DNA from: an uncultured Collinsella sp.
Lineage (GTDB): Bacteria > Actinomycetota > Coriobacteriia > Coriobacteriales > Coriobacteriaceae
DNA: 64,000 bases
NCBI GenBank assembly: GCA_902475375.1
Contig: CABRZC010000002.1
Location: 3,024 to 67,023 of the forward strand
Direction of reading: 5' to 3'
In this document: one piece after another, positions 3,781 through 25,435 of the stretch
Position numbering within the stretch: position 1 is the first letter of the stretch
How the letters are laid out: every line of letters begins with the position of its first letter
Made by a program: the position numbers and the translations under genes
Notes under the pieces: generated by a model
What the model was told of the DNA's origin: nothing
What the model saw: only the letters and a program-made list of their open reading frames with translations
Databases searched by the model: none

Positions 3781-3844
3781 GCCAACCGCAATCGGTGATT
3801 TTGAGACCCCGCACGGGGCATGAGATAGAACGAGGTAGGACCAG

Positions 3845-12800: not shown

Positions 12801-14557
12801 TCACACTCGTGGACACGGCCAACAACAGCCGCGAATATCACTACACGGTGGGCACGGGCGGCGCGACGTCAGTCAAGCTCACCGAGTTTGTGGACGCTGG
12901 CAACAAGGCTTACTACACCGAACCGTGGCTGAGCGAAATCGTGGGCGTGAAGGCCGATGAGGCCAAGGAGGACAAGGACGGCGCTTGGGTCAAGCTCGCC
13001 GATGACGAGGTCAAGGACAAGAGCCAGGCCGAACTCGCGAAGATGGCTGGCGCCAAGGTCGATGGCGCGTACTACCGCGCGCGCACTTCTTCCGACGCGA
13101 CGGGCACGTTCTATACCCTCTCCGTTGATAAGGAAGAGCCCAAGAGCGAAAACTTCTACTTGGTGGTGCGCACGCCGGCGGGGTCCGTGGGCGTCAACGG
13201 CTACACCGCCACCACGGTGGACACGAGCCTCAACGAGCACATCAACTACCTGCTGCGAGGCAAGAAAGCAGCCGACGGCAAGGCTGCCGAGGATGGGCAC
13301 CAGAATACGCCCTCGACCTATAGCGTGGCATCAAACTACACGCACAGCCTCGTTGACAACAAGCGTAACCTCGTCGACAACAGGGACAGCATCAACCGGA
13401 TGGAGCTCAAGGAAGCCACCTATTCGCTTTCCATGAACGTGAGCGACACCGTGACGTTTGACTCGAGCCAGCAATACACGAGCTCTGACGCGCTGTATTA
13501 TCAGCTCGATTCGTCGCTTGTCACCTATCACGACGGCGTCATCGCGGGCTCGGTAGGATACCCCACGGGCACGCAGGGCACGTATGAGTTCTACGTTAAG
13601 GTGGGTGATAACTACTACACCTGGGGCGGGTCGGGTTGGAATCTGGCCGGCACGAAGGAGACCCCAGTGGTGTCGGGCCTTAGTTGGACTGCGAACGGTG
13701 GCGACATGTCACTGGTGCTTGCCGATGCTGAGGGTAATCCCATCGACATGTCGGGCCTGCGCGAGATCGCCAAGAACCATGTCAACGCCTTCACCGTTAC
13801 CATGAGGGCCGCGCTCACCATGACGGAGCCTGCCTGCCAGGCGGGTATCGTGGCCTCGCAGAACAGCGGCACCGACCGCTACACCAAACCCAACTACCGC
13901 GCGTACCTTTCCACGCATGCCGACACGCTCAGCACCAGTAGCAACTCGGCATACAACGATGGCGGCGCCGGCTACTACCGTATGGATGTGGGCTCATCGA
14001 CCATCGCGCTCGAGGCGTCTAAGAAATCCCAGTTGGGCATCAACATCGATGACCTCAAGTCCGCTGACGGCGAGATCGCTCTGGTGGGTACCTACGACCT
14101 GAGCAAGCTCACGGGCGCCGAGGCCATGATCTCCAATGCCAGCACGGTGACCTATACGTTGAGCTTGCAGCGCCGGGGTAAAGACGACTATGCTCCGGTC
14201 GGCGATATCTCAAAGTACATTACGGTGTTCGGTAGCGACAAGCTGGGCGCGGGCTCGTTGAGTGGCAGCAGCTACGTTTTTACCGACACCAAGGCTGGCG
14301 ACACGTTTGCCACGCGTGACGGTAACAGCCTTGCCTTTAAGCATGCCTTCCGCGTTAAGGTGAACACCGATGTTGAGACGGCTGGTCAGACCTATGCCAA
14401 CTATCGTCTGGTGCTAACGGCCAATATGTCCGATAACGGTGTAATAAAGGACACGCCAGTCAATGTCAGCAACCTCGGAGGCTATAAGAACTCCGACTAC
14501 GTGACGTACACGCTGTCGCGCATCAACACCAAGGGCATTCCCCACGGGTCCAACTAG
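3845..14557 (+). CDS. giant secreted surface protein (3570 aa) with GLUG-like repeats
   Basis: Uninterrupted 10.7-kb ORF. It has a Sec signal (MRTAKRITTACLTAIMIFQALAPSTEVFA/QE) followed by an acidic D/A/T/G-rich tract. More than 20 GG[LIV][LIVA]G motifs (AGGLIGE, VGGLLGY, NVGGYVGT and similar) fall in two blocks at about nt 4990-7230 and 9360-11610. The C-terminal third is beta-rich and has no LPXTG motif or terminal TM helix. Confidence 0.9.
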   Translation: MRTAKRITTACLTAIMIFQALAPSTEVFAQELDAVMEASVSAARAAGNTARSVQDAVATALQDADQATSDDVATTPGADAGATEGGDGSTNAGESQDSTTDGTTNGDTPTEGDASQDDAAADEGAADGEQADDADADAADQANTAPTIATVEDLRHALGDGNVITDDLGAVTAITFGSNADLIAISNTDPAIYQNASIYKTGLSGVDFDVCSAQAVGDLGNLAFQGFGSDAHPFKGTLDLGGRSLTANKTLFNNIELNDNNGTVKLTWKGTDAQPIVAAKVTGAGKTLSAAITVDKPESGDTSVVKLTSPLVGEVTGELTLDATYSTSANSPLAIGMQSSTGNLGLLANTLTAGASLTIAGLNGLPKSFNGTPTIDATGAGANAGGLIGEAGEGAAVTLASNVDVSALSVAGNNAAGGLIGKATRLTLAVDTDNSGKDASGKDISIKPAHSVGSSSAGTYAGGLIGDASFASDFTIENGTFDFGEGVALSVANTTAAPSVGGLFGVLDISNGDVTVNGGLYKSTLQNGADNSNNNGVRGNYGGLVGKLWGQKYGDALHAFTVKGGAEVSFGVGSNGKLAYAGGLVGYLGEGGGSDNVSAVVISGAAVTCATSGYASNNGKYGGAVGVVDTKNVLEVRGLTVKTASGATIGGTNGGFAGVVGSSWLGIVKFSGITDLSDAAFVENDHTAQLIYENFNSLIFAAGSGSDRGATVGGTTEWQYKRPSKPVKIDDIYSYGQVIRLGDSFITLNPTTHELTLPAPLELTNGVYALASLEDFAKLAITWQTNGYYSMVEGVTENNLNGLKSSTITVNGTIDLKGTGLTGFTQDRANDSQVFSGTLNGGGTIKLAVGEPYGMRGNAPLGADDISAGNGKIYRHGRLGLFAAINGAAANSETVSNVTIAGSMRFDNGSAIEAGSLAGAIAGGLTLSGATCETNIACDDTFTNDVNIGGIAGSVSAASTVTFRDSSKAQASITATKTLNGNSRIGGAIGYVGNYVSTFNVTGLEVSGKIETGNCTSGKIAQVGGLIGCIAQSTYGADGAIANSAKKDVNITGLSFNSFKMGVGKNGDKLNGVGGLLGYSWGNAVVTIGDDNINKSENSYALKTTNASIIATVDDSKELGGLVYAASGHWIINNYAIDLSGTKINAGAAQTLGVLVCRGCKVDDKTTYGVESYLGLYLEDRAYWDTAYRVPTGEGAIVASGVTSFDEWVGSGVKPNNGSKLMDADWNTVVSLHTQKNKLDMDGDSTKDNSYHNRSSFGRSQNTNGNTRYFYNLDIASKNCEGGFSGSQIDTADKLLLWSAFCYAPAGIRSTIVPDGTTGLDDSITITGTIDLAGYSYYPTQPIGEVTVNNAAITFYYSKIKAEQNGNKLNSDATQHENMHCGLFQTVADGDLTVSNVTLGGTVGPVINDGKSSTDAIGAGGSSSGALVCRYVYGSSDGNGTKIRKISIDDLTLNNLIVDGANSATDANAYMPLLINEMQKYVSLNAKNIKTTGYTSGTKAATSLFGKLGVGSEADQVTAKFEQISLPSQENNTIFTHASLLESFGYGSTSTGSADYTFTKADGDAGKVTYGSEIDGSTEYPGKQLWYYDEATYGAVSGYVTVDGKKDGDVRPWFGDYLPYVYKGKAAEDGVQYHEIKVNQRIPKLVMGCGTYGDPYSVTNAAEMNAIANYINNMTALDGWEVTIVADQGRLCTRRSSDHSTDNEVTYVYKQANGTDNKWEKKTGDASTNSPQTLSDETMHRYMQSAYYSIEPTEGNTITLDGASFGGFGNRANPFRGVIVGNFGSDNKNATIKIENNEGSLRGLIPYSYGSVVRDLNIRYVNASATITYSAKDADGVPTAFFGGVVGCILGGDNIIDGVVVNGTTAENPTTGFTVTGGGDKPHLVPIGGYVGAIAGGGVIFRNMDKSGKSSWRAGTGDKSRGLGKGNFDLYNNPYVGRVIDGYAFSEGCKVENGNANYQINELTKKRTPCVTTTGTDNKYLGTNAEAPVTMVKNAQGLLVLSAIISSGAGAGAAHTNYSNNGVFRGSKAYWGSDSQDPAICGYLFGNKEYGKVRNANYANVGKPESAAGDFEIAKNDDQKAPGKQGWHGPLDHDDDVNSPYLVASYAADYQTGYVCASKSIGMSLEFKQGDTYDMTDYGTGYVGLNGRYYSNACNSNQPGTDRDRITPHVATIDGNGATITVGTEGTVYGVVEYADDDYKVSGVGGLFSTVMFTSTNVGQSVTANDGAQVKDLTFSNCNVALTYIDTNGEAKPGEAPNDLTGAGLLAGATANYDDGTCGIYRNVQMKNCTVSGAKSVGGLLGSSGRARRTTSEDRAYMVEFGDGWGPAYLYDCSYTGLNVTGEKNVGGYVGTVASACGVWTTAGTGVSERTVGKNSTITATGTVPYVGGVLGYVERSDISVNTNIGTTTAAQSSCTAVISGVNVLATGSNSDDHMGAGGVVGRARGGVISMSNVRIDGGNGTENAVIGDKAGTNNSIYNAGGLIGEVTSSGSPNKYWFDDCSVKNVSIAGTGKCSGGLIGYFFSNVNIACNNIAIENATIKGNWSGGLLGANNASNSGSVVIDVTNTKVSNTTFSERSNGGIMGDGRGQFHLLNVLMDSNSYNAGKTQGVLLGEVDTGDGKYSLSAAGVEVKPGSGKTTSDLPPMVYTTNTNTAAVNEKTYIAFGDYNGTAAAPNENKTLYGAGDTATTATSPYVTTRPVSTMAVRASDGDTTDRYLFGDGAAIDTATTIQSQAGARVPGRYTYTNIAGINDAGAYQNTSTYSADSSRSTYNANNITSDKKAKTDFPVLVIPGNDTTTVESYLNIVTNGGFSDACRLNGSTAHVTATAEVFSLADNGTFVKDVAASQAPTLKVLNNGTSSMAFRASTDWDNEQGRFTLLTVTFSEAGQSYRVQVPIIVKRMLEIDFTATYSEGANFKAADYATKYDKHVLVSSGDTMTGYLTWTYGSARGKPVDYGWNTLLEAGGSMGPLNKSITFGATLPEGTQLTLVDTANNSREYHYTVGTGGATSVKLTEFVDAGNKAYYTEPWLSEIVGVKADEAKEDKDGAWVKLADDEVKDKSQAELAKMAGAKVDGAYYRARTSSDATGTFYTLSVDKEEPKSENFYLVVRTPAGSVGVNGYTATTVDTSLNEHINYLLRGKKAADGKAAEDGHQNTPSTYSVASNYTHSLVDNKRNLVDNRDSINRMELKEATYSLSMNVSDTVTFDSSQQYTSSDALYYQLDSSLVTYHDGVIAGSVGYPTGTQGTYEFYVKVGDNYYTWGGSGWNLAGTKETPVVSGLSWTANGGDMSLVLADAEGNPIDMSGLREIAKNHVNAFTVTMRAALTMTEPACQAGIVASQNSGTDRYTKPNYRAYLSTHADTLSTSSNSAYNDGGAGYYRMDVGSSTIALEASKKSQLGINIDDLKSADGEIALVGTYDLSKLTGAEAMISNASTVTYTLSLQRRGKDDYAPVGDISKYITVFGSDKLGAGSLSGSSYVFTDTKAGDTFATRDGNSLAFKHAFRVKVNTDVETAGQTYANYRLVLTANMSDNGVIKDTPVNVSNLGGYKNSDYVTYTLSRINTKGIPHGSN

Positions 14558-14566
14558 CCACGCAAA

Positions 14567-14598
14567 GAGGCGGCAACCACCCAGTTGCCGCCTCTTTT
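14567..14598 (+). terminator. rho-independent terminator of the giant gene
   Basis: GAGGCGGCAAC-CACCCA-GTTGCCGCCTC gives a perfect 11-bp stem followed by TTTT, 10 nt after the stop codon. Confidence 0.85.
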
Positions 14599-14630
14599 CC
14601 TGCTCGCTCGGACTGCCGCTGCTTCAGCTT

Positions 14631-14742
14631 CCCAACCGTCTTTCCAACTTTCCACTTAACTTACCACCTAAGGTGGAAAGCTGGAAAGTTAAGTGGAAAG
14701 CTGGTAAGTTAGGTGGAAAGTTGGAAAGTTGGGAGGTTCGGC
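14631..14742. repeat. TGGAAAG-heptamer array and hairpin (upstream copy of the direct repeat)
   Basis: 14631-14700 is about 93% identical to 16240-16308. It holds two inverted CTTTCC(A) units, then five forward (T)GGAAAG units plus one degenerate unit at 8-12 nt spacing. A perfect 15-bp hairpin forms from CTTTCCACTTAACTT (14648-14662) and AAGTTAAGTGGAAAG (14686-14700), with an inner CCACC/GGTGG stem. The array runs up to the RBS and ATG at 14743. Confidence 0.85.
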
Positions 14743-16212
14743 ATGAATGAGGAGTGGTTGGCGCAGGTCATCCATCATCTGCGGACAATAGGAAACGACA
14801 CCCAGCAGTACGAAGTAAAAGAGGCCAAGGGCGCGCTCCCCAAAAGCATCGTCGAGACGCTTTCGGCATTTTCCAACGCGCAGGGCGGCTTTATCATCCT
14901 CGGCATTTCCGAAAAGAACGGGTTTATGCCCGTCGAGGGTTTTGATGCCCGCAAGATGCAAGACGCCCTCTCTTCTGCATGTGAAAAGCTGACGCCCGTT
15001 GTGAGGCCGGATATCCAAGTGCTCCCCTTCGAGGGTAAGCTGGTGCTTTGCGCGCGCATCAAAGAAATGCATCCACGCGATAAACCCTGCTATATTGCGG
15101 CACGCGGAATGTACGATTCGTCCTTTATCCGTACGGGCGACGGCGACCGGCGCATGACTCCCTACGAAATCGATCGCTTTATGGAGGAGCATGTTCAGCC
15201 TACATACGACGACGAGCCGGTCGAAGGTGCCACGCTCGATGACCTTGACGCCGATCTTTTGCAAGGGTTTATAAAACGCCAGCGCGAGCTACACCCTAGG
15301 CTTTTGGGCACCAGAAGCGACGATGAGATTCTCCTTGACCTGCATGTGACCAAAAGGGTGGACGACGCAATCGTGCCGACGCTTGCTGCAATTGTCGCGA
15401 TGGGACGGTTTCCGCAAAAGTTCTTCCCACGTCTCAATGTGACCTTTACGGCGTACCCCGGGACCACAAAAACGCAGCGAGTAAGTGATAACAAGCGTTT
15501 TGTGGATTCTCAGACCATTTTGGGTCCGATCCCTTTCATGATTGAGGACGTGCTTGCCGCCGTTGCGAGAAACACCCGAAACGCAGCGGTTATCGAGGGC
15601 GCGTTCCGGAAAGATGTGCCCGATTATCCGCCCGTGGCGCTGCGCGAGGCGGTGGCGAACGCGCTCATGCACCGCGACTACTCTTCCGCCGCGCGCGGCT
15701 CACAAGTGCAGGTCAACCTGTATATCGACCGCGTCGAGATTCTCAATCCCGGCGGGCTGTACGGCGACGTAACGATCGATTCGCTGGGAGTTTCTGGGGT
15801 TTCGTCATCCAGAAACCAGTTCCTTTCAAATATCCTCGAGACCACGCCGTACCCAGACGGTGGCTACGTGGTCGAAAATCGCGGCACTGGTTATCAGGAG
15901 ATAGGTGAGCAGCTCGAGCGGGCAAACATGTTGCCGCCCGAACCAAAGAACTCGACAGTTTCTTTTTCGTTGACGTTCGATAAGCGAAAGATAATGCGGG
16001 CGGAACAGGTGACGTCTGTGGGGCATGTGGACGAGGCAATCTTGGATTACCTGGCAACACATTCTTCGGCTTCGACCAAAGAGCTCACCGACGCTTCGGG
16101 TTTGAGCAGGAGCGCCGTTTCCAACCACATAAAAGGCTTGATTGGTGCGGGCAAGATTGAGGCGATGGAGCCTCCGCGCAGCCCGCGACAACGGTATCGA
16201 CTCGCGAAGTAG
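14743..16212 (+). CDS. Schlafen/AlbA_2 (divergent AAA) domain protein with RecG-C-like HATPase_c_4 region and C-terminal wHTH (COG2865-type)
   Basis: The ATG at 14743 is preceded by GGGAGG; the track start at GTG 14713 lies inside the repeat. The N-terminus (QQYEVKEAKGALPKSIVETLSAFSNAQGGFIILGI) is typical of AlbA_2. The middle contains REAVANALMHRDY. The C-terminal ILDYLATHSSASTKELTDASGLSRSAVSNHIKGLI is a winged HTH. Confidence 0.75.
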   Translation: MNEEWLAQVIHHLRTIGNDTQQYEVKEAKGALPKSIVETLSAFSNAQGGFIILGISEKNGFMPVEGFDARKMQDALSSACEKLTPVVRPDIQVLPFEGKLVLCARIKEMHPRDKPCYIAARGMYDSSFIRTGDGDRRMTPYEIDRFMEEHVQPTYDDEPVEGATLDDLDADLLQGFIKRQRELHPRLLGTRSDDEILLDLHVTKRVDDAIVPTLAAIVAMGRFPQKFFPRLNVTFTAYPGTTKTQRVSDNKRFVDSQTILGPIPFMIEDVLAAVARNTRNAAVIEGAFRKDVPDYPPVALREAVANALMHRDYSSAARGSQVQVNLYIDRVEILNPGGLYGDVTIDSLGVSGVSSSRNQFLSNILETTPYPDGGYVVENRGTGYQEIGEQLERANMLPPEPKNSTVSFSLTFDKRKIMRAEQVTSVGHVDEAILDYLATHSSASTKELTDASGLSRSAVSNHIKGLIGAGKIEAMEPPRSPRQRYRLAK

Positions 16213-16239
16213 GGCTGTCCGTCGCCCATGCTTCGGTCT

Positions 16240-16328
16240 CCCAACTTCTTTCCAGCTTTCCACTTAACTTACCACTTAAGGTGGAAAGCTGGAAAGTTAA
16301 GTGGAAAGTTGGGAAGCAAGTGGAAAGC
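16240..16328. repeat. TGGAAAG-heptamer array and hairpin (downstream copy of the direct repeat)
   Basis: Same organisation as 14631-14742: two inverted CTTTCC units, the same hairpin core (CTTTCCACTTAACTTACCACTTAAGGTGGAAAGCTGGAAAGTTAAGTGGAAAG), and four forward units plus one degenerate unit. It begins 28 nt after the stop codon. Confidence 0.85.
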
Positions 16329-16594
16329 TGACATGTTAGGTGCGGACTGACGAGGGGTTAATAATTGCACAAACCATACCAGCCAAACAAAAAGATACCA
16401 ATCTGGTTGGTAAAACACCGTCAATGAGCCGCGAGCCAACTAGCTGCGTAAATAAACCTAAAGAACTGTTGCAAATGAATGGCAAATACCCAGATGCCGC
16501 CGTTGCGATTTTCAATTAACTGTTACGCGGGAACAGCAAAATGCTACTATCTAACAAGCACGTAAGAAAGCAGATTAACGGTTAAGGCTAAGAA

Positions 16595-16999
16595 GTGGCA
16601 GGTATGTCGGAAGCAACTAGGACCCGCACGCATGCGCCCGAGGTTAGGCAGCGCGCCGTCGAGATCCTCCAAGAGGGGGTCGGTCACCGCGCCCTCGCTG
16701 CAAAGCTTGGCATTCCCCAGGCCACGGCTCGTCAGTGGGCCCGCGCATATGCCGTGGGCGGTGCCGACGCCGTGCTCAATGCGGGCGCTCGTCATCACAC
16801 CTATTCGTACGACGTAAAGCTCGCCGTGGTTAAGGACCGTCTGGAAAACGGCCTGACGGTTCGCGAGGCCATGATCAAGCACGGGATTCCCAGCGAGTCT
16901 TCGGTTAAGGCCTGGTGCCGCCAGTATCGCGAGAGCGGTGAGTCCGCGCTGGTCGATAAGCCGCGCGGTCGCAAGCCGCGCGTTAAAAAGGCGGAATAG
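16595..16999 (+). CDS. helix-turn-helix protein resembling IS3-family OrfA (orphan, no transposase OrfB follows)
   Basis: 134 codons from GTG 16595; an alternative ATG lies at 16604. Two HTH-like segments are present (GHRALAAKLGIPQATARQWARAY and LTVREAMIKHGIPSESSVKAWCRQY), and the C-terminus is basic. No DDE ORF lies downstream. Confidence 0.55.
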   Translation: MAGMSEATRTRTHAPEVRQRAVEILQEGVGHRALAAKLGIPQATARQWARAYAVGGADAVLNAGARHHTYSYDVKLAVVKDRLENGLTVREAMIKHGIPSESSVKAWCRQYRESGESALVDKPRGRKPRVKKAE

Positions 17000-17011
17000 C
17001 GAACGGGATGG

Positions 17012-17034
17012 TGCGCCCACAGGGGCGCATTTTT
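17012..17034 (+). terminator. rho-independent terminator after the HTH gene
   Basis: TGCGCCC-ACAG-GGGCGCA followed by TTTTT. Confidence 0.7.
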
Positions 17035-17180
17035 CTTGCCGCCCCTCTGCTCCAATGCGGACAGACTCCTTGCCCCGTACGCCTAAAACTCCCCAGTTGA
17101 CCGAAAACCCGCCGCCGCTACTCCTCAATTGAGCTATAACGTTAAACAATTGCAGCGTTTTTGCATGGGGGAGTGATGGT

Positions 17181-20063
17181 ATGACGCTACTGTATTTCCT
17201 TACCCTGTTTCCGCTGGTACCGGCGCTGGGCATGCTGCTCGCGCACGGTGACCGCGCCCGCGATGCGGTGGGGCTCATAGGTTCCGGCATCATTATGGTG
17301 GTGACAGTTGTAGTCGCCGTCATGTTTTTTGGCGCGGGCCCGCAGAGCTTTGAGGTTGCCTCCGACACCTCGCATGTGCTCTCGATCATCAGCTCCGCCA
17401 TCGATGTCATTCTGTGCGCCGTCATCCTGTACAACGCGTACAAATATAGGAACGTGCTCACCACGGTGCTCGGCATAGTCCAGCTGGTGGGCTCGCTCGC
17501 CTTTGCAGCCATGACGCTGCCCGCGGCCGAAGCCGTCACGGCGACGCCGCTCTACCTGGATTACATGAGCGTGATCATGGTCCTCGCCGTCGGCATTGTC
17601 GGCAGCCTAATCTGCGTGTATGCCCTGGGCTACATGAAGGACTTCCAGGCCCACGACGAGCACGAGGCCGCGCTGCGCGGGCAGACCGCGCCCGACCGTC
17701 GCCCGCAGTTCCTGGCGCTTATGTTCCTGTTCCTCTCGGCCATGTTCGTCATCGTGACGAGCGACAACCTTGAGTGGTTGTTCTGCGGCTGGGAAATCAC
17801 CACCGTGTGCTCGTTCCTTATGATTGGCTATACGCGCACGCCCGAGGCCATCAAGAACGCCTTCACCCAGATCATCCTCAACATGCTGGGCGGTATCGCG
17901 TTTTTGGCCGGCCTCATGTACCTGCACGTTAACGGTATGCCGCTGACCATCTCGGGTGTGATCGAGCTTTCCGGCGCCGGAACCGCGCAATCCGCGCTGC
18001 TGGTGATGCCGGTCATCCTGTTGTCGCTCGCCGCACTCACCAAGGCCGCACAGATGCCGTTCCACACTTGGCTGCTGGGTGCCATGGTTGCCCCCACGCC
18101 CACGAGCGCCCTGCTGCACTCGTCAACCATGGTCAAAGCCGGCGTGTTTCTGATGGTCAAGCTCAGCCCGCTCTATGCCATCTATCCCGTGACTGGCTTT
18201 ATGGTCACGAGCGTGGGCGCTATCACGTTTTTGCTCGCCGCCCTCATGGCCATCTCGCAGAGCAACGCCAAACGCGTGCTCGCGTACTCCACCATTTCCA
18301 ACTTGGGCCTCATCAGTGCCTGTTTGGGTGTCGGCGCGCCCGAGGCCGTATGGGCGGCCATCTTCCTGATCCTGTTCCACACGGTGGCAAAGTCGCTGCT
18401 GTTCCTGTGCGTGGGCACGGCCGAGCATCATATCGGCAGCCGCAATATCGAGGACATGGACGGTATGTTCAGCCGCATGCCGCACCTGACGCGCCTGATG
18501 ATGCTGGGCATCATGGGCATGTTTGTGGCGCCGTTTGGCATGCTCGTGTCCAAGTGGGGCGCCCTGGTGGCGTTCGCGCAGACCGGCAACGTGCTCATGA
18601 TCATGGTGTTGGCCTTTGGCTCGGCTGCGACGTTTTACTTCTGGGGCAAGTGGCTTGCCAAGCTTTCGGGCGTCGACCCCACGGCTCAAAACGTTGAGGT
18701 CAATGTCCATAAGACCGAATGGATGGCGCTCAACACCATCGCCGCGCTGCTGATTCTGTGCTGCGTGGCCTTCCCGCTCATCTCGAGCGGTCTGGTGTCG
18801 CCTTACCTGGCCATGGTGTTTGGTCGCGTGCCGTACGTTATTGGCAAGGACGCCATGTATCTGATGGTGGTTATCGTGGCGTTTATCGCCGTGGTGCTGC
18901 TGACTTCATTCCGCGTGAGCAACAAACCGCACGTCAACGTGTACCTTTCGGGCGTGGGAACCGACAAATATCGCCATTTCCGCGGCTCGATGGGTCACGA
19001 GGTAAAGGCCGAAAAGCGCAATTGGTACTCGGAGGACGCCCTTGGCGAGAAGCGTATTGGCCCCGCGGGTAGCGTCGTGTGCTGCAGTATTATTTTGTTT
19101 GCGCTGCTGTGTTGCGCGTGGATTGGGCCCGAGCGGCTTGCCATGAGCGCGCCCTCGGTGCTGCGTGGCAAGTATTTTGAAGGTTCGGGTGTCGTGGGCA
19201 TCTTTATTGGCACCGTGGCGTTTGCCCTGCTGGCGCCGCTTGTGGGCGGCCTGATCGACGGCGTTGACCGTAAGCTTTCGGCTCGCATGCAGGGCCGTGT
19301 GGGCCCGCGCCTGCTGCAACCGTTCTACGACGTTGCCAAGCTGCTGAGCAAGGCCCCTGCCAGCGTAAACACCATGGACGATACCTACATGGCGTGCGCG
19401 CTCATCTTTACCGTCGTGGGCGGCGGCATCTTTGTGTCGGGCTCCAACACGCTGCTGTGCGCCTTTATGGTGACGCTCGCCGCGATCTTTGTGGTGTTGG
19501 CGTCCGCCTCGACGCAAAGCCCGTTTGCCCAGGTTGGCGCCGACCGCGAGCTGCTGCAGGTTATGAGTTACGAGCCCGCCGTTCTGCTGATGAGCGTGGG
19601 CCTGTACCTTGCCACCGATAGCTTCGATTCCATCGCCGTGACGGGGCAGTCGGCCCCCATCATCGTGTACAGCGCGCCCATTTTCCTCGCGCTGCTCGCG
19701 GTGCTCACCATCAAGCTGCGCAAGTCGCCGTTTGACCTTTCGTACTCGCATCACGCGCATCAGGAGATCGTTCAGGGCGTCGCCACCGAGATGAGCGGCG
19801 GCACGCTGGCAAAGATGACCCTTATGCACTGGTGCGAGACCGTGCTGTTTTTGATGTGGGTGGGCATGTTCTTTGTCTGGGACAACCCGGTGAGCTGGGT
19901 CGTGGCCCTGGTCGTGATGGCCGCGACGTATTTTGTCGAGGTGCTTATCGACAACACCTTCGCACGCAGTACCTGGCGCAGCTGCTTTAAGCTCGGATGG
20001 GGCGTGGCGCTGGTGTTTGGCCTGCTCAACCTTATGCCCATCCTCGTCGACGTGTTTATTTAG
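17181..20063 (+). CDS. group 4 [NiFe]-hydrogenase membrane subunit, fused NuoL/HycC/EchA-like and NuoH/HycD/EchB-like modules
   Basis: 960 aa. The N-terminal ~640 aa is polytopic and carries the antiporter-like signature WEITTVCSFLMIGY. The C-terminal ~310 aa begins with LVGGLIDGVDRKLSARMQGRVGPRLLQPFYDVAKLL, the hallmark N-terminus of NuoH/HycD/EchB. SD GGGGGAG lies upstream. Confidence 0.85.
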   Translation: MTLLYFLTLFPLVPALGMLLAHGDRARDAVGLIGSGIIMVVTVVVAVMFFGAGPQSFEVASDTSHVLSIISSAIDVILCAVILYNAYKYRNVLTTVLGIVQLVGSLAFAAMTLPAAEAVTATPLYLDYMSVIMVLAVGIVGSLICVYALGYMKDFQAHDEHEAALRGQTAPDRRPQFLALMFLFLSAMFVIVTSDNLEWLFCGWEITTVCSFLMIGYTRTPEAIKNAFTQIILNMLGGIAFLAGLMYLHVNGMPLTISGVIELSGAGTAQSALLVMPVILLSLAALTKAAQMPFHTWLLGAMVAPTPTSALLHSSTMVKAGVFLMVKLSPLYAIYPVTGFMVTSVGAITFLLAALMAISQSNAKRVLAYSTISNLGLISACLGVGAPEAVWAAIFLILFHTVAKSLLFLCVGTAEHHIGSRNIEDMDGMFSRMPHLTRLMMLGIMGMFVAPFGMLVSKWGALVAFAQTGNVLMIMVLAFGSAATFYFWGKWLAKLSGVDPTAQNVEVNVHKTEWMALNTIAALLILCCVAFPLISSGLVSPYLAMVFGRVPYVIGKDAMYLMVVIVAFIAVVLLTSFRVSNKPHVNVYLSGVGTDKYRHFRGSMGHEVKAEKRNWYSEDALGEKRIGPAGSVVCCSIILFALLCCAWIGPERLAMSAPSVLRGKYFEGSGVVGIFIGTVAFALLAPLVGGLIDGVDRKLSARMQGRVGPRLLQPFYDVAKLLSKAPASVNTMDDTYMACALIFTVVGGGIFVSGSNTLLCAFMVTLAAIFVVLASASTQSPFAQVGADRELLQVMSYEPAVLLMSVGLYLATDSFDSIAVTGQSAPIIVYSAPIFLALLAVLTIKLRKSPFDLSYSHHAHQEIVQGVATEMSGGTLAKMTLMHWCETVLFLMWVGMFFVWDNPVSWVVALVVMAATYFVEVLIDNTFARSTWRSCFKLGWGVALVFGLLNLMPILVDVFI

Positions 20064-20075
20064 GAGGCGGCATCC

Positions 20076-20705
20076 ATGGATCATAAAATGTCGCGCTCGC
20101 CGTGGGTTATTCATTACGACGGCTCGAGCTGCAACGGATGCGATATCGAGGTGCTGGCCTCGCTCACGCCGCTGTTCGATGCGGAGCGCTTTGGCGTGGT
20201 CAACACCGGCAACCCCAAGCATGCGGACATCTTTTTGGTGACGGGGTCGGTCAATGCCCAGAACCTGCCCGTCGTGCGCCAGATCTACAACCAGATGCTC
20301 GAGCCCAAGTGCGTGGTGGCCTGCGGTATCTGTGCGTGTTCGGGCGGCGTGTTCCGCGATGCCTATAACGTGATCGGCGGCGTGGACCGCGCGATTCCCG
20401 TGGACGTGTACGCGCCCGGGTGCGCCATTCGCCCCGAGACCGTGATCGATGCCATCGTGGAGGCGTGCGGCATCCTGGACCAGAAGGAGGCCGTGATGCG
20501 CGCCGGCGGCGATCCGCTTACCGTGGGCGGCGCCGCGACCTGGGACGGTGGCGTTGAGCTGGGCGAGGACGGGTTTGTGGCTGCGGGGGCCGGGACTGAT
20601 GGTGCCGGTGACGGCGTCGAGGCCAACGTGTCCACCAGGTCCGCCGCACCCGCCGCTGGCGACGCGCCCGCTGAGACGCCCATCGCTGCAAAGGAGGCCG
20701 AGTAA
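20076..20705 (+). CDS. [NiFe]-hydrogenase small subunit (NuoB/HycG/EchC-like) with low-complexity C-terminal tail
   Basis: The cluster-binding cysteines are present: YDGSSCNGCDIEV, ACGICACSGGVF and PGCAIRPE. About 70 extra G/A/D/E-rich residues follow at the C-terminus. Confidence 0.85.
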   Translation: MDHKMSRSPWVIHYDGSSCNGCDIEVLASLTPLFDAERFGVVNTGNPKHADIFLVTGSVNAQNLPVVRQIYNQMLEPKCVVACGICACSGGVFRDAYNVIGGVDRAIPVDVYAPGCAIRPETVIDAIVEACGILDQKEAVMRAGGDPLTVGGAATWDGGVELGEDGFVAAGAGTDGAGDGVEANVSTRSAAPAAGDAPAETPIAAKEAE

Positions 20706-21421
20706 TGCAAAAGGCTATCTATACCACCGTCGGGATCGATGAGCTCCTGTCGCATGTCCAGGCGCTCAAGGGCGTCGGCGCGCGCTTTGTGCAAATGCAC
20801 GCCGAGCGCTGTGTGGACGACGGCACGTATCGCCTGGTCTATACGTTTATCAACGTCCGCGCTGCGCAAGAGCAGATCGCTCGGGATGGCAGCCATGCGA
20901 TCGAGAACCTGGTGGTCGAGGGCATCGACCAGTACCAGGAGATTCCGTCCATCAGCTCGTATTATCCGGCGGTATTCCCGTTTGAGAACGAGGCGCACGA
21001 CCTGTTTGGGCTTGCCATCACCGACATGCAGATCGACTTTAAGGGCTTTTTCTACCAGGTCTCGACTGCCGAGCCCATGAGCGTTATCACGCCCGAGGTG
21101 AAGGCCGCACGCGAGAAGGCCATGAAGGTCCGCGCGGCTGCCGAGGCCAAGGCGCGCAAGGCCGCGGCCGAGAAGGCCGCCGCGGCTGCGGCTGCTGCAG
21201 GGGAGGGCGCTGCGGGCGCCGGCGATGCCGCAGGCGCCGCTGCTCAGCCCGCTGCGGCTGCCGGCTCCGATACTCAACACGATGAAGCTGCTGCGAAGGC
21301 CGCGCTCAAGGCCGCCGAGCTGGAGGCAAAGCTCGCCGCCATGGATCCCGAGAAAGCGGCCAAGGTCCGCGCGGCGCTTGCCGCCAAGGCCGCCCGCGAC
21401 AAGCAGAAAAAGGAGGCGTAA
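20705..21421 (+). CDS. NuoC/EchD-like hydrogenase subunit with Ala/Lys-rich C-terminal tail
   Basis: The start overlaps the previous stop (TAATG). The first ~125 aa are NuoC-like (PAVFPFENEAHDLFGL). The last ~110 aa are A/K/E-rich low complexity. Confidence 0.7.
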   Translation: MQKAIYTTVGIDELLSHVQALKGVGARFVQMHAERCVDDGTYRLVYTFINVRAAQEQIARDGSHAIENLVVEGIDQYQEIPSISSYYPAVFPFENEAHDLFGLAITDMQIDFKGFFYQVSTAEPMSVITPEVKAAREKAMKVRAAAEAKARKAAAEKAAAAAAAAGEGAAGAGDAAGAAAQPAAAAGSDTQHDEAAAKAALKAAELEAKLAAMDPEKAAKVRAALAAKAARDKQKKEA

Positions 21422-21426
21422 GGTCC

Positions 21427-22515
21427 ATGGCACATCGCTCCGTTATTCCGTTTGGCCCGCAACACCCGGTGCTGCCCGAGCCGCTTCATCTGGACCTGGT
21501 GATCGAGGACGACCGCGTCATCGAGGCAATTCCGCAGATCGGCTTTGTGCACCGCGGACTCGAGAAGCTCACCGAAAAGCGCGACATGCACCAGTTTGGC
21601 TACATCGCCGAGCGCATCTGCGGCATCTGCGCCGTGGGCCACAGCTATGGCTATGCCAGCGCCTGCGAGCGCATGCTCGACATCGAGGTGCCCGGCCGCG
21701 CGCAGTATATCCGCACCATTTTGCACGAGCTTTCGCGCATCCACTCGCATCTGCTGTGGCTGGGCCTGCTCGCCGATGCCTTTGGCTTCGAGGCGCTGTT
21801 CTATCGTTCGTGGACGCTGCGCGAGCAGATTCTCAAGATCTTCGAGAGCACGTGCGGTGGCCGCGTGATTCTGTCGATTAACGAGATCGGCGGCCTTAAG
21901 CACGATATTGAGGATTCTGAGCTGGCGGGTATTGTCCAAACGCTCGACGCCATGCGCCCCGCCTACGAGGCCCTGGTGCATACGTTTTTGGACGACAATA
22001 GCTGCGGCGAGCGCCTGCATGGCGTGGGCGTGATCAGCAAGAAGGACGCGCTGAATCTGTCGATGGTCGGCCCGTTCGGTCGCGCCTCGGGCGTGGATTA
22101 CGACGTGCGCATGTTTGGCGACGGTGCCTATGCAGGCCTGGCAGCATTTGAGCCCATCGTTGCTACCGACGGCGACTGCTATGCCCGCTGCCAGGTGCGT
22201 TGTGCCGAGGTCACGCAGGCCATGGACATCATCAAGGAGCTTGTCAGCAAGATCCCGCACGACGGTATCGGCGGGCGCACCAAGCTTACGCCGGCCGACG
22301 GCGCGCGCGGCGAGGTTGTGATTGAGCAGCCGCGCGGCGAGGCGTACTACTATGTGCGCGGCAACGGCACCAAGAATCTGGACCGTTTTCGCGTGCGCAC
22401 GCCGACGTCGCAGAACCTGGCGGGTCTGACACATGCGCTGCAGGGCGTGCTCCTTGCCAACGTGCCCATGATTATCCTGACCATCGACCCCTGCATTAGC
22501 TGCACGGAAAGGTAG
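21427..22515 (+). CDS. group 4 [NiFe]-hydrogenase large subunit (EchE/HycE/NuoD-like)
   Basis: The N-terminal Ni-binding motif RICGICAVGHS and the C-terminal DPCISCTER are both present. The protein ends at that motif, with no C-terminal extension. Confidence 0.9.
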   Translation: MAHRSVIPFGPQHPVLPEPLHLDLVIEDDRVIEAIPQIGFVHRGLEKLTEKRDMHQFGYIAERICGICAVGHSYGYASACERMLDIEVPGRAQYIRTILHELSRIHSHLLWLGLLADAFGFEALFYRSWTLREQILKIFESTCGGRVILSINEIGGLKHDIEDSELAGIVQTLDAMRPAYEALVHTFLDDNSCGERLHGVGVISKKDALNLSMVGPFGRASGVDYDVRMFGDGAYAGLAAFEPIVATDGDCYARCQVRCAEVTQAMDIIKELVSKIPHDGIGGRTKLTPADGARGEVVIEQPRGEAYYYVRGNGTKNLDRFRVRTPTSQNLAGLTHALQGVLLANVPMIILTIDPCISCTER

Positions 22516-22522
22516 GCGCGGC

Positions 22523-22864
22523 ATGAGTTTACTGACATTTGCCAAGACGGCCTTGGGCTCTATGGTCAAGCAGCCGGTAACGGTGTGCTATCCGCAGGAG
22601 AAGCTGACGGCGCCCGAGCGCTTGCGCGGGCACATCGTTAACGACATGGACGTGTGCATTTGCTGCGGGATGTGCGCGCGTCGCTGCCCGGCGGGCGCAC
22701 TCGCGGTCGATCGCAAGGGCGGAACGTGGTCGATCGACCCGTATGCCTGCGTGGTGTGCGGCGAGTGCATCGAAAGCTGCCCCAAGCGCTGCCTGACTAT
22801 GGACACCGCCCGTACTCCAGTTGCGGCGGATAAGACTCCCACGGTAGAAACCAAGCCGGAATAG
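22523..22864 (+). CDS. 2x[4Fe-4S] ferredoxin subunit (EchF/HycF/NuoI-like)
   Basis: Two CxxCxxCxxxCP motifs: CICCGMCARRCP and CVVCGECIESCP. Confidence 0.85.
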   Translation: MSLLTFAKTALGSMVKQPVTVCYPQEKLTAPERLRGHIVNDMDVCICCGMCARRCPAGALAVDRKGGTWSIDPYACVVCGECIESCPKRCLTMDTARTPVAADKTPTVETKPE

Positions 22865-22885
22865 AACTGGAATAGAACTGGAATA

Positions 22886-22919
22886 GGGGCCGGTGGGGCA
22901 AAAATGCCCCGCCGGCCCC
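22886..22919 (+). terminator. GC-rich stem-loop ending the hydrogenase operon
   Basis: GGGGCCGGTGGGGC-AAAAAT-GCCCCGCCGGCCCC forms 14 bp with one G-U pair. There is no U tract, consistent with an actinobacterial-style terminator. Confidence 0.6.
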
Positions 22920-22952
22920 GCGCGTGAGCGCGCGGCTAAGCCTCTGCGAACA

Positions 22953-23104
22953 AAAACTATGCCGGATTACGGGGCTGGATAGCGAACCTCCGACCATACA
23001 GAAAATCGCAAAAACAAAACCGCAGGTAGACGAGCTGTCATCTTGCAGAAAACGCGGGTATGGATGGGGATCCTGAGTTTGGCCCCGTAATCCGGCATAG
23101 TTTT
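22953..23104. repeat. hairpin element A (23-bp terminal inverted repeat, 106-bp core)
   Basis: AAAACTATGCCGGATTACGGGGC (22953-22975) is the perfect reverse complement of 23082-23104. The core contains AAAACCGCAGGTAGA (23016-23030) and GCGGGTATGG (23054-23063). Confidence 0.85.
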
Positions 23105-23209
23105 GAAATGCCTCCATATCCGTAACATCCCTTGATCTCCCACGGACAGAGGGAAACGGATCATTTTGGCCTTGCGAGGGCTGCCACGTGACCCGTCTGC
23201 CATGAAATG

Positions 23210-23347
23210 GGCCCATCTACTACGTTTAAGCCGCTATCCTCAACCATGGCAAGTAATGCGAAATAAAAACCGCAGGTAGAACGCCTGCGATTTTTTATGA
23301 AAAGCGGGTATGGTCGGGGGTATCGAGTCAAACGTAGTAGATGGGCC
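23210..23347. repeat. hairpin element B (18-bp terminal inverted repeat, 102-bp core)
   Basis: GGCCCATCTACTACGTTT (23210-23227) is the perfect reverse complement of 23330-23347. The core is homologous to element A, with AAAACCGCAGGTAGA at 23266-23280 and GCGGGTATGG at 23304-23313. Confidence 0.85.
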
Positions 23348-23449
23348 GATTTCGTGGCGGGCGCTGTCAGCCGGTTTCCGCGGGTGGAAGAAAATGGATC
23401 ATTTTGGTCCCGCGAGTCTTGCGGAGGCACTCGTGCAGGGCCGCCCGAA

Positions 23450-23603
23450 CAAAACTATGTCGGTTTACTACGAAGAATTCGACATTCCCGACCATGACTG
23501 CATTTTTCTAAATACTGCAAGCGTTCTACCTGCGGTTTTGCAAACGCGCAATTTACCGTGGTCGAAGGCGGGCGATTCGTCGTAGTAAACCGACATAGTT
23601 TTG
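23450..23603. repeat. hairpin element C (24-bp terminal inverted repeat, 106-bp core inverted relative to A and B)
   Basis: CAAAACTATGTCGGTTTACTACGA (23450-23473) is the perfect reverse complement of 23580-23603. The core carries the shared motif on the other strand (TCTACCTGCGGTTTT, 23525-23539). Confidence 0.85.
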
Positions 23604-23663
23604 AAATGGTATTAAATCGGTGGCAGCCATTTTGCTATGCCGGGGTGGTCGGTCGTTGGGTAA

Positions 23664-24293
23664 TTACCCTCGCAGGTAGGCGATGGCGATTTGCGTGCGG
23701 TTGCGCAGGCCCATCTTTGCCAGGATCGAGCTGATGTGGTTGCGCACGGTGCCTTCGCCCATGTAGGCGGTGGCGGCGATCTCCTTGTTGTCGAGGCCAC
23801 GAGCGATGAGCTCGGCGACTTCGAACTCGCGGTCGGTCAGGCTGGCGAAGGCCGCGGGCCGGCGGAGCGTGTCCGCCTCGACGCCCGTTCCGTCAAAATC
23901 GATATCCTCGATCGCCTTACCCTCGAGTACGCGCTTGCCGTCCATGACTTGCACCAACGCTGGCGGAATGGCGGCGACATCGGTCTTGATCAGGTAGCCG
24001 CGGGCGCCCAGTTTGAGCGCCGACACAATGTACTCGTCATCCGAGAATGTCGTCAGAAACACCACGCGCGCCGCAGGGTCGCGCTCAAGGATTTCGCGTG
24101 CTGCCGAAAGTCCGTCACGCCCCGGCATCTGAATGTCGAGCAGCGCGATGTCGGGCGCGTGCTCGGCGTAGAGCGCGACCGCGTCGTCGCCATTGGCGCC
24201 GGTGCCCACTACCTCGATTTGCGGCTGGGCGCCCAGGATAATCTTGAGCGAATCGACCACCAAGCGGTCGTCGTCGACAACGATGAGCCTCAT
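23664..24293 (-). CDS. LuxR/NarL-family response regulator
   Basis: Receiver domain (MRLIVVDDD..., ALLDIQMPGRDG) followed by a C-terminal LuxR HTH (LTDREFEVAELIARGLDNKEIA). Confidence 0.9.
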   Translation of the reverse strand: MRLIVVDDDRLVVDSLKIILGAQPQIEVVGTGANGDDAVALYAEHAPDIALLDIQMPGRDGLSAAREILERDPAARVVFLTTFSDDEYIVSALKLGARGYLIKTDVAAIPPALVQVMDGKRVLEGKAIEDIDFDGTGVEADTLRRPAAFASLTDREFEVAELIARGLDNKEIAATAYMGEGTVRNHISSILAKMGLRNRTQIAIAYLRG

Positions 24294-25435
24294 CGGCCCT
24301 CATCTCCTTGCTGTTTGGGAACGGTGGCAAACACGCGCCAGCCGCCGGCGCTGGCATGCGGACCGGCGGTGAAGGTGCCGCCAAGCGCCTCGATGCGCTC
24401 GCGCATGGAGGCGAGCCCCATGCCCTCCGCGGCGCCGCGGCTGCTTGCTTGGACCCCGCCCGTGCCATCGTCGGTAACGATGAGCTGGTAAAACGACGGA
24501 TGCTCCATGCATCGTACAGTGACAGCATGGGCGCAAGCGTGGCGCATGGTGTTGGAGAGCGCCTCGCGCAGGACCGCCGCAAAGCAGTTGGCGACGTTTG
24601 CGGGTGCATGCTCGGCCATAACTTCAAGCTCAATCTGCGGACCGCCGTCCGAGCGCGCGCCTTCGACAATGCGTTCGAGCTGCACGGAAAGGTCGACGGC
24701 GTTGTCGTTGAGCGCGTGGACGCTGGCGCGCACAAGCTGGAGCGCCTCGTCAACCGTGCGTTTGACGTCGGCGAAATCGGCGGCGACGCCGGGCTCGTCG
24801 GCATGGACTACGCGCAAGGCTTCGGCTTGCAGTGAGGCGCGCGTGAGCTGGTGGCCGACGTTATCGTGGATCTCGCGCGCGATGCGGGCGCGTTCGGCGA
24901 GCGTCGCGAGCTCGACTTCGTAGTCCTGGCGGTCGGCAAGATCGCGGTTGCGTGCTTCGAGCGCCAGAGCACGTTCCTGCAGCTCGTCGCGGGTGCGGTG
25001 CATGCGCCGCTGCTCGCGCTCCAACTGGGCGGTACGTAGCGATAGCAAGGTGGCGGCAACCGAAAGGATGGCGGTCAGCAGGAGCGTTCGGGCGGTGGGC
25101 TCGTCGGCGCGAAGGTCCGCGACGAGCGCAAAGGTAAAGACGGAGCCAATGCTCAGTGCGATCCAGGCACGCTCACGGTGCACGCGTCGTGCGATGTCAT
25201 AGAGGGCGAGAGGTGCAAACGGCACAAACGGCGGCACGAAGACGGCCGCGATGATGTAAGCGCAGCTCGCGGCCTCGCTTGTGCGGCGCGTGCGTTCCTT
25301 CTGCGCGAGCTCGGCCAGCGAGGTGGCAATAACGCCAAGGCAAAACGCCGCGACCAGGCGAGCGTCCACAGCAAGGCCCGTGGCGGCCGCAATACAGCAC
25401 GCCAGCACAATCGATTTGTCGAAAAGCCTGTTCAT
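24290..25435 (-). CDS. HisKA_3-type sensor histidine kinase (DesK/LiaS/NarX class)
   Basis: I chose the start at ATG 25435 (MNRLFDKS...). The protein has 4-5 TM helices, an H-box (ERARIAREIHDNVGHQL), and N and G boxes (REALSNTMRHA, DDGTG, GMGLASMRERIEALGG). Its stop overlaps the regulator start. Confidence 0.85.
   Translation of the reverse strand: MNRLFDKSIVLACCIAAATGLAVDARLVAAFCLGVIATSLAELAQKERTRRTSEAASCAYIIAAVFVPPFVPFAPLALYDIARRVHRERAWIALSIGSVFTFALVADLRADEPTARTLLLTAILSVAATLLSLRTAQLEREQRRMHRTRDELQERALALEARNRDLADRQDYEVELATLAERARIAREIHDNVGHQLTRASLQAEALRVVHADEPGVAADFADVKRTVDEALQLVRASVHALNDNAVDLSVQLERIVEGARSDGGPQIELEVMAEHAPANVANCFAAVLREALSNTMRHACAHAVTVRCMEHPSFYQLIVTDDGTGGVQASSRGAAEGMGLASMRERIEALGGTFTAGPHASAGGWRVFATVPKQQGDEGR

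Follow-up and report, generated by a model that had tools for sequence, protein, structure and literature searches.

The combination of an SLFN_AlbA_2 domain with a GHKL-type ATPase and an HTH (helix-turn-helix) domain is among the commonest architectures of the prokaryotic Schlafen proteins (pSlfns). Under the name 'HisKinase-HTH' it accounts for 19.2% of the pSlfns (PMC13056530), and more than 90% of the C-terminal tails of the 'Schlatpases' carry an HTH (bioRxiv 10.64898/2026.05.29.728809). In SLFN-pAgo the same pair of domains, SLFN+GHKL, assembles into tetramers with ATP and cuts tRNA (bioRxiv 10.64898/2026.05.29.728809). Neither paper puts the HTH class to experiment; the fused domain is regarded as a putative sensor, no target of the HTH is named and repeats around the gene are not mentioned (PMC13056530; bioRxiv 10.64898/2026.05.29.728809). 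Here we describe a gene of this class from an uncultured Collinsella sp., which is bracketed by two near-identical arrays of short iterated units. It lies in a stretch of 64,000 nucleotides (contig CABRZC010000002.1 of assembly GCA_902475375.1, positions 3,024 to 67,023), which is called the window in the following and whose own numbering is used throughout.

The overall picture, which we consider reasonably probable, is that the arrays are the protein's own operators, duplicated at both ends of the gene and making it prone to deletion. The protein family is already known, and autoregulation by a fused HTH as well as deletion between direct repeats are ordinary ideas. As far as our literature searches show, new are a widely conserved layout in which a Schlatpase-HTH gene has twin, concertedly evolving and presumably cognate arrays at its two ends, the probable target of the HTH in an abundant and uncharacterised class of Schlafen proteins, and a solo-array polymorphism in gut Actinobacteria. 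No published description of an array-gene-array layout was found in these searches.

The Schlafen-GHKL-wHTH protein

Pfam assigns residues 20-139 of the protein to SLFN_AlbA_2 (PF04326, E 1.6e-15) and, beyond a linker, residues 319-412 to the GHKL-type domain HATPase_c_4 (PF13749, E 5.6e-21). The C-terminal winged HTH (wHTH) comprises residues 430-475, with matches to HTH_24, MarR, ArsR and IclR at 430-480. The residues D19-x4-E24-x-K26 (D19-x4-E24-V-K26 in the window protein) and S41-A-F-x-N45 (here the Schlafen box S41-A-F-S-N45) are invariant in 15 aligned homologues, as are the GHKL motifs E302xxxN306, N335PGGLxG341 and G381xG383. According to the published motif definitions ((E/D)x4(D/E)xK nuclease motif, SAFAN box; bioRxiv 10.64898/2026.05.29.728809) the D19 and S41 motifs correspond to the nuclease motif and the Schlafen box of SLFN-pAgo, with Asp in place of the first Glu and SAFSN in place of SAFAN. 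The E302/N335/G381 motifs fit a Bergerat-fold ATPase, for which ATP binding is predicted. PADLOC aligns residues 18-424 with the N-terminal part of a pAgo model. The AlphaFold2 model has a mean pLDDT of 77, with low values in the ATPase domain (pLDDT 32-65), and matches DIP2311 (3lmm). As modelled, the SLFN domain appears to share its fold with the N-domains of SLFN13, SLFN5 and SLFN11 and with 2kyy, and the C-terminal domain resembles ArsR/SmtB/MarR repressors.

The window member thus has the domain order SLFN_AlbA_2-GHKL-HTH, the nuclease motif and the SAFAN-like box of the pSlfn HisKinase-HTH/Schlatpase-HTH proteins, to which it is likened by sequence, and like them it is a single gene without conserved partners; activity in defence or as a tRNase is predicted only. 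The initial annotation had seen no obvious partner gene, and the neighbours indeed differ in every lineage. What sets the locus apart from the published accounts are the putatively cognate repeat arrays around the gene.

Two arrays of iterated units

Positions 14632-14708 and 16240-16316 form a direct repeat with 91% identity over 77 nt and, as read from the sequence, the similarity extends leftward to about 14620 and 16228. The initial annotation had placed repeats of about 93% identity at 14631-14700 and 16240-16308; such repeats exist, but the best partner of the first stretch is 16239-16308 and the identity is slightly lower (64/70 = 91.4%). Each array is roughly 90-110 bp long and is built of the unit (G/C)TGGAAAG with a 20-bp period. 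Tandem Repeats Finder (TRF) reports this period as GTGGAAAGCTGGAAAGTTAA in both arrays (2.8-2.9 copies), which corresponds to two 8-mers plus TTAA. The previously described composition of two inverted and four to five forward units was reproduced: the exact heptamer TGGAAAG occurs in 2 inverted and 5 forward copies in the upstream array and in 2 inverted and 4 forward copies in the downstream array. Overall about 2.5 inverted units are followed by 4-6 forward ones, which makes each array a long imperfect palindrome. The heptamer matches 19 times in the whole window (5.1 expected), and the 16-mer GTGGAAAGCTGGAAAG with up to 2 mismatches matches 7 times, always within the two arrays (0.02 expected). 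A TGGTAAG variant, which makes a TAnnnT box, is a conserved feature of the upstream arrays, and most downstream arrays lack it.

The upstream array adjoins the ribosome binding site (RBS) and the start codon, as had been noted before, and its last unit GTTGGGAGG contains the RBS. The downstream array, which has the same orientation and no RBS-like end, begins about 16 nt past the stop codon. Both copies also contain the hairpin that had been proposed for them. In the downstream array it has perfect 16-nt arms (16248-16263/16281-16296), and in the upstream array the arms are 30 nt long (14640-14669/14699-14728) and 93% complementary, with the first 16 nt perfect. The folding z-scores of the two arrays against shuffled sequence are -6.8 and -6.5, with stems of about 25-35 base pairs that contain bulges, and in single-stranded folding the RBS pairs with the outermost left arm CTTCCCAAC (14628-14636).

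A single locus in Collinsella

The array is not a dispersed intergenic element, a possibility that the initial annotation had named as a refutation of its view. A scan with a 28-mer of the array covered a single genome for each bacterial and archaeal species and gave 62 matching stretches. These come from about 50 Collinsella genomes (or bins with the same Collinsella locus), and all of them are at the SLFN locus, between the surface-protein gene and the HTH/Nuo genes. All of the approximately 70 Collinsella copies of the gene are present at this single locus, and metagenomic gene copies of 95-100% identity belong to the same locus with one exception. In that one (L079, 4939-6219) the AT-rich spacer is followed by an IS256-like (mutator-type) transposase gene and the HTH gene is displaced, which represents a separate insertion.

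The array 27-mer has no match in IMG/VR, and arrays as phage targets or decoys were therefore rejected. Phages and satellites hold only distant homologues of the protein (at most 39.5% identity). A link to plasmids was rejected as well, as these hold only homologues of at most 34% identity. The array-bearing loci examined are all in chromosomal contexts.

Array-gene-array layout in relatives

For each gene, 350 bp upstream were aligned with 400 bp downstream, and the same flank test was applied as a control to 293 other open reading frames (ORFs) from the same loci. Flanking repeats were found in all ten metagenomic homologues of 55-75% identity and in 7 of the 43 homologues of 47-54% identity (about one in six). 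The scores of the array-bearing SLFN genes range from 64 to 184 and those of shuffled sequence reach maxima of about 20-29; the control ORFs have a median score of 20 and a maximum of 53. Relatives which carry the gene without the repeats, the second anticipated refutation, were thus not encountered among these ten homologues, nor in the named genomes of Collinsella intestinalis (flanking repeat of 91 nt, 96%) and Bifidobacterium thermophilum (66 nt, 94%).

At 55% identity and above the bracketing is seen in other Collinsella, in Senegalimassilia and in Bifidobacterium, and the gene neighbourhoods differ. The homologues of 69-75% identity (L063, L064, L066) lie in unrelated neighbourhoods, each between direct repeats of about 70-100 bp; the repeat pairs are 98-99% identical in L063 and L064 and about 90% (61/68) in L066, which is from Senegalimassilia. 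These repeats are palindromic arrays of short units as well, and the units are lineage-specific (e.g. TGGAATGTTGG and GTGGTAAGTTAA). Direct alignment of the flanks scored higher than inverted alignment in 16 of 16 loci, with a narrow margin in the more symmetric arrays (114 vs 112 in L111, 64 vs 60 in L125). The downstream copy mostly starts 8-33 nt past the stop codon (104-110 nt in L091 and L163). In 14 of the 15 lineages the two copies of one locus are each other's closest relatives. Therefore, the copies either evolve in concert or are periodically re-duplicated.

Some further repeats near SLFN genes are of a different kind. A ~107-nt element with inverted ends (GAGGGACGGTTCTTTTTGA...TCAAAAAGAACCGCCCCT) occurs in at least 9 copies in 20 kb of Acetoanaerobium noterae (L171, 18694-38726 of NZ_CP154629.1, a sequence of 2.63 Mb with a plasmid label, which appears to be a chromosome filed as plasmid). 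Two of the copies flank an SLFN homologue of 34% identity. This element recurs after many genes and resembles a generic terminator or a repetitive extragenic palindromic (REP)-like repeat, and it was rejected as support for the layout. The homologue in L128 (47% identity) is associated with a GC-rich direct repeat of 63 nt (97% identical, 2845-2907/4464-4525), which is not operator-like and is unrelated to the promoter-proximal palindrome at 2936-2998 (AACTTCCCACTTA...TAAGTGGGAAGTT). The Senegalimassilia locus L066 has, in the interval from a tRNA gene to its upstream array (3640-3850), a ~26-nt repeat, TTTTGGCACGATTTCGAACTTTCCGA, that occurs four times in direct and inverted orientation. The same repeats are also found in the Senegalimassilia contigs with solo arrays, which are described below.

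The array units follow the recognition helix

Nearly every homologue down to 47% identity has an iterated quasi-palindromic array directly upstream of its start codon. This is also true for nearly all homologues of 47-54% identity without flanking repeats, a few of which (L103, L106, L123) show a weak downstream echo. The upstream array is thus a general feature of the family and the downstream copy an addition.

The units of the arrays change together with the recognition helix of the wHTH. Helices of the type ..S(N/S)H(I/V)K.. are found with the units TGGAAAG or TGGAATG (window, L063, L064, L091, L165), and ..NHIK.. pairs with GTGGAAAG. The units are GTGGTAAG or GTGGGAAG for ..NH(I/L)N.. (L066, L088), GTGGCAAG or GTGGGAAG for ..NHLR.. 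(L163), and GCGAAG or TGTTAAG for ..SH(V/L)R.. (L086, L087). The helix AGIS.G.RR.. occurs with GTGTTGAGTGTT-type units (L107, L108, L120). Similarity of the arrays in 7-mers correlates with identity of the helix (rho 0.36, partial 0.29); for the remainder of the protein the correlation is weaker (rho 0.23, partial 0.07). The statistic is built on non-independent pairs and is therefore supporting evidence, not proof.

That the units follow the recognition helix is the main evidence on which we read the arrays as binding sites of the protein itself, and it seems quite likely that they are the cognate sites of the wHTH. The first of two readings in the initial annotation, iterated sites for the protein's own wHTH, thereby gains indirect support, from the near-universal upstream array as well as from the covariation. 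The pairs also give a first hint of a recognition code, in which GTGG[N]AAG would be read against the residue after NH(I/L), and for the HTH class as a whole the lineage-specific arrays offer a concrete and testable answer to the question of its target. The double-HTH protein encoded downstream, whose two HTH motifs would have matched two direct 8-mers, was rejected as array binder, as its gene is absent from all other lineages with arrays and present in empty sites.

Empty sites and loss of the gene

In about ten Collinsella genomes the surface-protein gene is followed by one array, the AT-rich spacer and the HTH and Nuo genes, and the SLFN gene is missing. These solo arrays are chimeras of the upstream and the downstream array, with crossover points and unit numbers that differ between genomes; arrays in general contain 3 to 9 forward units. 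The solo arrays of L050 and L014, for example, combine the left flank of the upstream type and the upstream-specific GCTGGTAAGTTAGGTGGAAAG with the downstream-specific GTTGGGAAGCAAGTGGAAAGCTG at the end. In a tree of the adjacent HTH+Nuo DNA the empty locus L050 is sister to the occupied locus L053 and lies inside an occupied clade. The other empty Collinsella genomes group within a clade of greater divergence. In Senegalimassilia, contigs with 99-100% identity in the neighbouring Na+/H+ antiporter show the array-gene-array layout, a single chimeric array or no array at all, and many Senegalimassilia contigs are without the gene and have one chimeric solo array.

The variable crossovers and unit numbers indicate homologous recombination or slippage between the copies and not a fixed-site recombinase. 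Empty sites are very likely the products of such recombination. The second reading in the initial annotation, a cassette delimited by recombination or insertion repeats, is therefore right in one part, as the gene is present or absent between identical flanks and leaves one chimeric array. A dedicated insertion mechanism looks less likely than ordinary homologous recombination, given that the crossovers vary and no recombinase or transposase is encoded by the ORFs tested nearby.

Two Senegalimassilia loci without an array (L153, 2540-2908; L154, 3862-4503) have a differently built spacer between tRNA gene and antiporter, and in L154 the tRNA gene and its terminator are duplicated about 330 bp apart. 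These spacers hint at a past integration or excision at the tRNA.

Frameshifted SLFN alleles are also present in some Collinsella genomes (L059, 2395-3860; L090, 3001-4466; L082, 3001-4466). They appear as overlapping tblastn pieces (e.g. residues 1-297 and 287-489) and match the truncated cluster P0070 (342 aa). Recurrent deletion together with frameshifts is an indirect sign that the gene is dispensable; it is often lost, also by pseudogenisation. The mean divergence of the SLFN gene in Collinsella is 1.2%, compared to 3.0% for the adjacent HTH+Nuo marker (r = 0.20), which might suggest horizontal spread of the cassette by itself. However, the sliding identity profile reveals the whole region as a recombination mosaic, with blocks of 99-100% identity also inside the surface-protein gene.

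Dozens of homologue clusters (P0001, P0009, P0013, P0022 and others) consist only of sequences from contigs of 1.6-1.7 kb; P0001 has 1384 member sequences and a longest contig of 1636 bp. Circular excision products were rejected as an explanation, because contigs of this kind are the expected effect of near-identical flanking repeats on the assembly graph. The arrays thus account for the separate 1.6-kb contigs in which the gene comes out of assemblies, and this signature could cheaply flag more such loci.

The locus in the window

The features of the locus are summarized in Table 1. As reported initially, the coding sequence has a lower GC content (about 0.53-0.58) than the neighbouring genes (about 0.60-0.62), and the AT-rich patch at 16200-16599 has a value of 0.455. 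The AT-rich patch and the IS3-like double-HTH gene had been put forward as support for a cassette. However, in empty sites both are found at the same distance from the array, and they are absent from all other lineages; they are therefore features of the host locus, outside the unit. The 131-aa protein, probably a domesticated regulator, contains two motifs of the HTH_28/HTH_Tnp_1 type and has no transposase partner. Its conservation amounts to 91-100% identity across all Collinsella loci, with or without the SLFN gene. No recombinase, integrase or transposase was detected among the ORFs tested around the locus (83-3780 and 16604-25597).

Table 1. Features of the SLFN locus and its surroundings, in window coordinates.
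Feature	Position	Strand	Remarks
Surface-protein gene	end 14557		3570 aa
Terminator hairpin of the surface-protein gene	14559-14602		canonical
Upstream array	14620-14736	.	quasi-palindrome; ~45 orthologous Collinsella loci with 3-9 forward units
Upstream array, left arm	14625-14669		~2.5 inverted units
Upstream array, centre			CCACCTAAGGTGG
Upstream array, right arm	14673-14736		5-6 forward (G/C)TGGAAAG units, 20-bp period
Candidate promoter in forward units	14682-14710	+	TGGAAA-17 nt-TAAGTT; inference by eye only
RBS GGGAGG	14731-14736	+	6 nt 5' of ATG; part of last unit GTTGGGAGG
SLFN_AlbA_2 + GHKL-ATPase + wHTH gene	14743-16212	+	489 aa
Downstream array	16228-16330	.	2-3 inverted units, centre CCACTTAAGGTGG, 4 forward units
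AT-rich spacer	3' of downstream array		~270 bp
Double-HTH gene (IS3 OrfA-like)	16604-16999		131 aa
Fused NuoL/NuoH-like membrane protein gene	start 17181

The last ~500 bp of the surface-protein gene (14000-14600) are only 76-89% identical to most other Collinsella loci, and the sequences on both sides of this block are 99-100% identical to them. This mosaic block suggests that the C-terminus of the large surface protein is varied by recombination. Two further tandem repeats of the window are a 33-bp unit in 1.9 copies at 32724-32788 (TRF score 109) and a perfect 11-bp unit, GGAATAGAACT, in 2.6 copies at 22858-22886.

Alternative explanations

Several observations weigh against own operators at both ends of the gene, in addition to the non-independent pairs behind the covariation statistic. 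Many distant homologues have no downstream copy, which is thus inessential to the family. As a scan for the sigma-70 consensus detected no promoter in the upstream array, the candidate given in Table 1 included, the overlap of operator and promoter is argued from position. The near-constant position of the downstream copy would equally fit a terminator role or a cassette boundary. Selection for binding does not explain a colinear identity of 94-99% that includes spacers and the central loop, so that conversion or re-duplication would be needed. Within Collinsella, however, the upstream and downstream copies mostly evolve as orthologues without clear shared polymorphisms. Ongoing gene conversion between them was not detected there: variants like CCACGTAAC are found in the upstream array of some genomes and in the downstream array of others, never in both arrays of one genome.

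If the unit were a mobile gene cassette, the array would be an att-like or attC-like site, and the gene would excise together with one array as a 1.6-kb circle and re-integrate at a solo array, with either the encoded nuclease/ATPase/wHTH protein or a recombinase of the host as the catalyst. Solo arrays would then be landing pads and not scars. Such a cassette would agree with a presence/absence that is bounded exactly by the repeats in two genera, with the different neighbourhoods of the module in related genera and with near-identical copies within a locus, which are expected after recent integration. It would also agree with the tight packing of the gene between its arrays, which is similar to that of integron cassettes, with palindromes that keep their structure and vary in sequence between lineages, and with the heptamers ACTTAAC and GTTAAGT of the window array, which fit the attC R''/R' consensus. 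However, the varying crossovers and unit numbers of the solo arrays are what homologous exchange or slippage would give, unlike a single crossover at a fixed point, the Collinsella copies all share one locus, and the ORFs tested around it include no integrase or transposase. The cargo always belongs to the same protein family, unlike that of integron cassettes, and the arrays of relatives (L063, L102, L107 and others; read by eye) lack attC-type heptamers. Most distant homologues have the array upstream only, which indicates that it is primarily a 5' regulatory element, and the 1.6-kb contigs are assembler output and not evidence of circles. A mobile cassette is therefore unlikely, and less likely than own-operator arrays. 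An integron cassette in the strict sense was rejected since no recombinase is found among these ORFs, only two sites are present per locus and the R'' (RYYYAAC) and R' (GTTRRRY) boxes are not conserved in relatives. Insertion sequences, transposons, miniature inverted-repeat transposable elements (MITEs) and REP-RAYT systems were rejected because of the single locus per genome and the lack of a transposase belonging to the unit.

The arrays could also act mainly as structured nucleic acid rather than as sites for a protein. In these Actinobacteria they would form long hairpins (I-shaped terminators) to either side of a toxic gene, where transcription would be terminated or insulated, and would keep the RBS of read-through transcripts hidden; the duplication would then be the reuse of one insulator. 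The strong folding of both arrays, the pairing of the outer left arm with the RBS unit and the position of the downstream copy a few nucleotides past the stop codon in nearly all lineages would agree with such a role, as would the terminator scan, which detected no canonical terminator 3' of the SLFN gene. A hairpin, however, needs neither iterated units of 8-12 bp nor extra forward units nor lineage-specific sequences that track a helix. Furthermore, the upstream surface-protein gene has a canonical terminator of its own. An identity of the arrays in Rfam was rejected, as only sub-threshold, chance matches of miRNA hairpins to the palindromes were obtained. We regard this explanation as rather improbable. 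A generic intergenic repeat (REP- or MITE-like) that lies on both sides of the gene by chance is true of the distant Firmicute homologue from Acetoanaerobium, and in L128 the gene is flanked by a repeat unrelated to its promoter palindrome. For the window clade it is refuted and has hardly any probability left: the array occurs nowhere else in the window and at one locus only across Collinsella, its unit is identical to the promoter-proximal operator-like unit, and the pattern, which none of the 293 control ORFs showed, is repeated in 15 lineages with sequences of their own.

A model for twin operator arrays

Returning to own operators, we propose that the C-terminal winged helix would bind both arrays as its cognate sites. 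Protein bound to the upstream array, in the promoter/RBS region, would repress its own synthesis, which makes sense because the Schlafen-type nuclease has toxic tRNase relatives. In the window clade a second copy of the whole array would have arisen at the gene's 3' end and stayed near-identical to the first through occasional gene conversion or re-duplication. This second copy would most likely serve as an auxiliary operator and also as an insulator. Relatives of the GHKL domain drive ATP-dependent formation of dimers or tetramers, so that an oligomer could hold both arrays and loop out the 1.6-kb gene, which would tighten repression and insulate the gene from outside transcription. Such looping is conceivable by analogy, and we put it forward tentatively. 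The long hairpin may in addition act as a terminator and, where transcripts read through, conceal the RBS. Direct repeats of 80-100 bp around a gene expose it to homologous recombination, which very probably deletes the gene repeatedly and leaves one chimeric solo array. Deletion between the arrays would explain the presence and absence of the gene in populations of common human gut Collinsella and Senegalimassilia as well as the solo-array scars.

It is also imaginable, although we give it little credence, that the arrays go beyond operators and serve a Schlafen defence nuclease as a DNA cofactor acting in cis, or that the protein itself drives recombination or conversion between them. As a cofactor the arrays would be the anchor to which the wHTH tethers ATP-dependent oligomers or filaments, with the tRNase locked off ('DNA antitoxin'), comparable to the inactive guide-bound SLFN-pAgo filament. 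Loss of the tether by phage takeover, a change in supercoiling or competing DNA would release active tetramers. A protein that drives recombination would form a self-maintaining, REPIN-RAYT-like pair of gene and repeat, able to excise and to recapture solo arrays.

Comparison with known systems

Integron attC sites and REPIN-RAYT systems are similar to the locus in that a tightly packed ORF lies between structured palindromes, which agree with each other within one locus and diverge from lineage to lineage, and REPIN-RAYT also in that a single-copy gene co-evolves with its flanking palindromes. They differ by an IntI or HUH transposase, by multi-cassette arrays and by dispersed copies, none of which are seen here, and the cargo here belongs to one family. 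The formation of solo long terminal repeats (LTRs) resembles the empty sites more closely: repeat-gene-repeat becomes one chimeric repeat with variable crossovers between the same flanks, as in both Collinsella and Senegalimassilia, and the empty allele is nested among occupied ones (L050). In contrast to solo LTRs no retroelement is involved, and the repeats would be regulatory arrays and not the termini of an element.

Auxiliary operators and looping are well known from lac O1/O2, gal OE/OI and lambda OL/OR around cI, the latter about 2.4 kb apart. Our proposal shares with these an oligomeric repressor whose operator clusters flank the regulated unit or lie inside it. There the likeness is confined to the individual operators, whereas here it extends to whole arrays (80-100 bp, 91-99% identity, direct orientation), and looping is proposed.

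In the iteron plasmids P1 and F the rep gene is flanked by iteron arrays (incC/incA and ori2/incC, respectively). An iteron-type replicon itself was rejected for our locus, as there is no Rep domain or origin and the loci are chromosomal, and the window arrays are colinear, near-identical palindromes and not independent iteron sets. The layout nevertheless agrees in that a gene for a winged-helix protein lies between two arrays of iterated, putatively cognate sites of about 20 bp. In P1 and F the upstream array overlaps the promoter of the gene (autoregulation) and the downstream array is a control element that pairs with the first, as would be the case here under our model. By analogy, the rep gene between its iteron arrays may thus be regarded as the closest formal counterpart of the Schlafen gene between its twin arrays.

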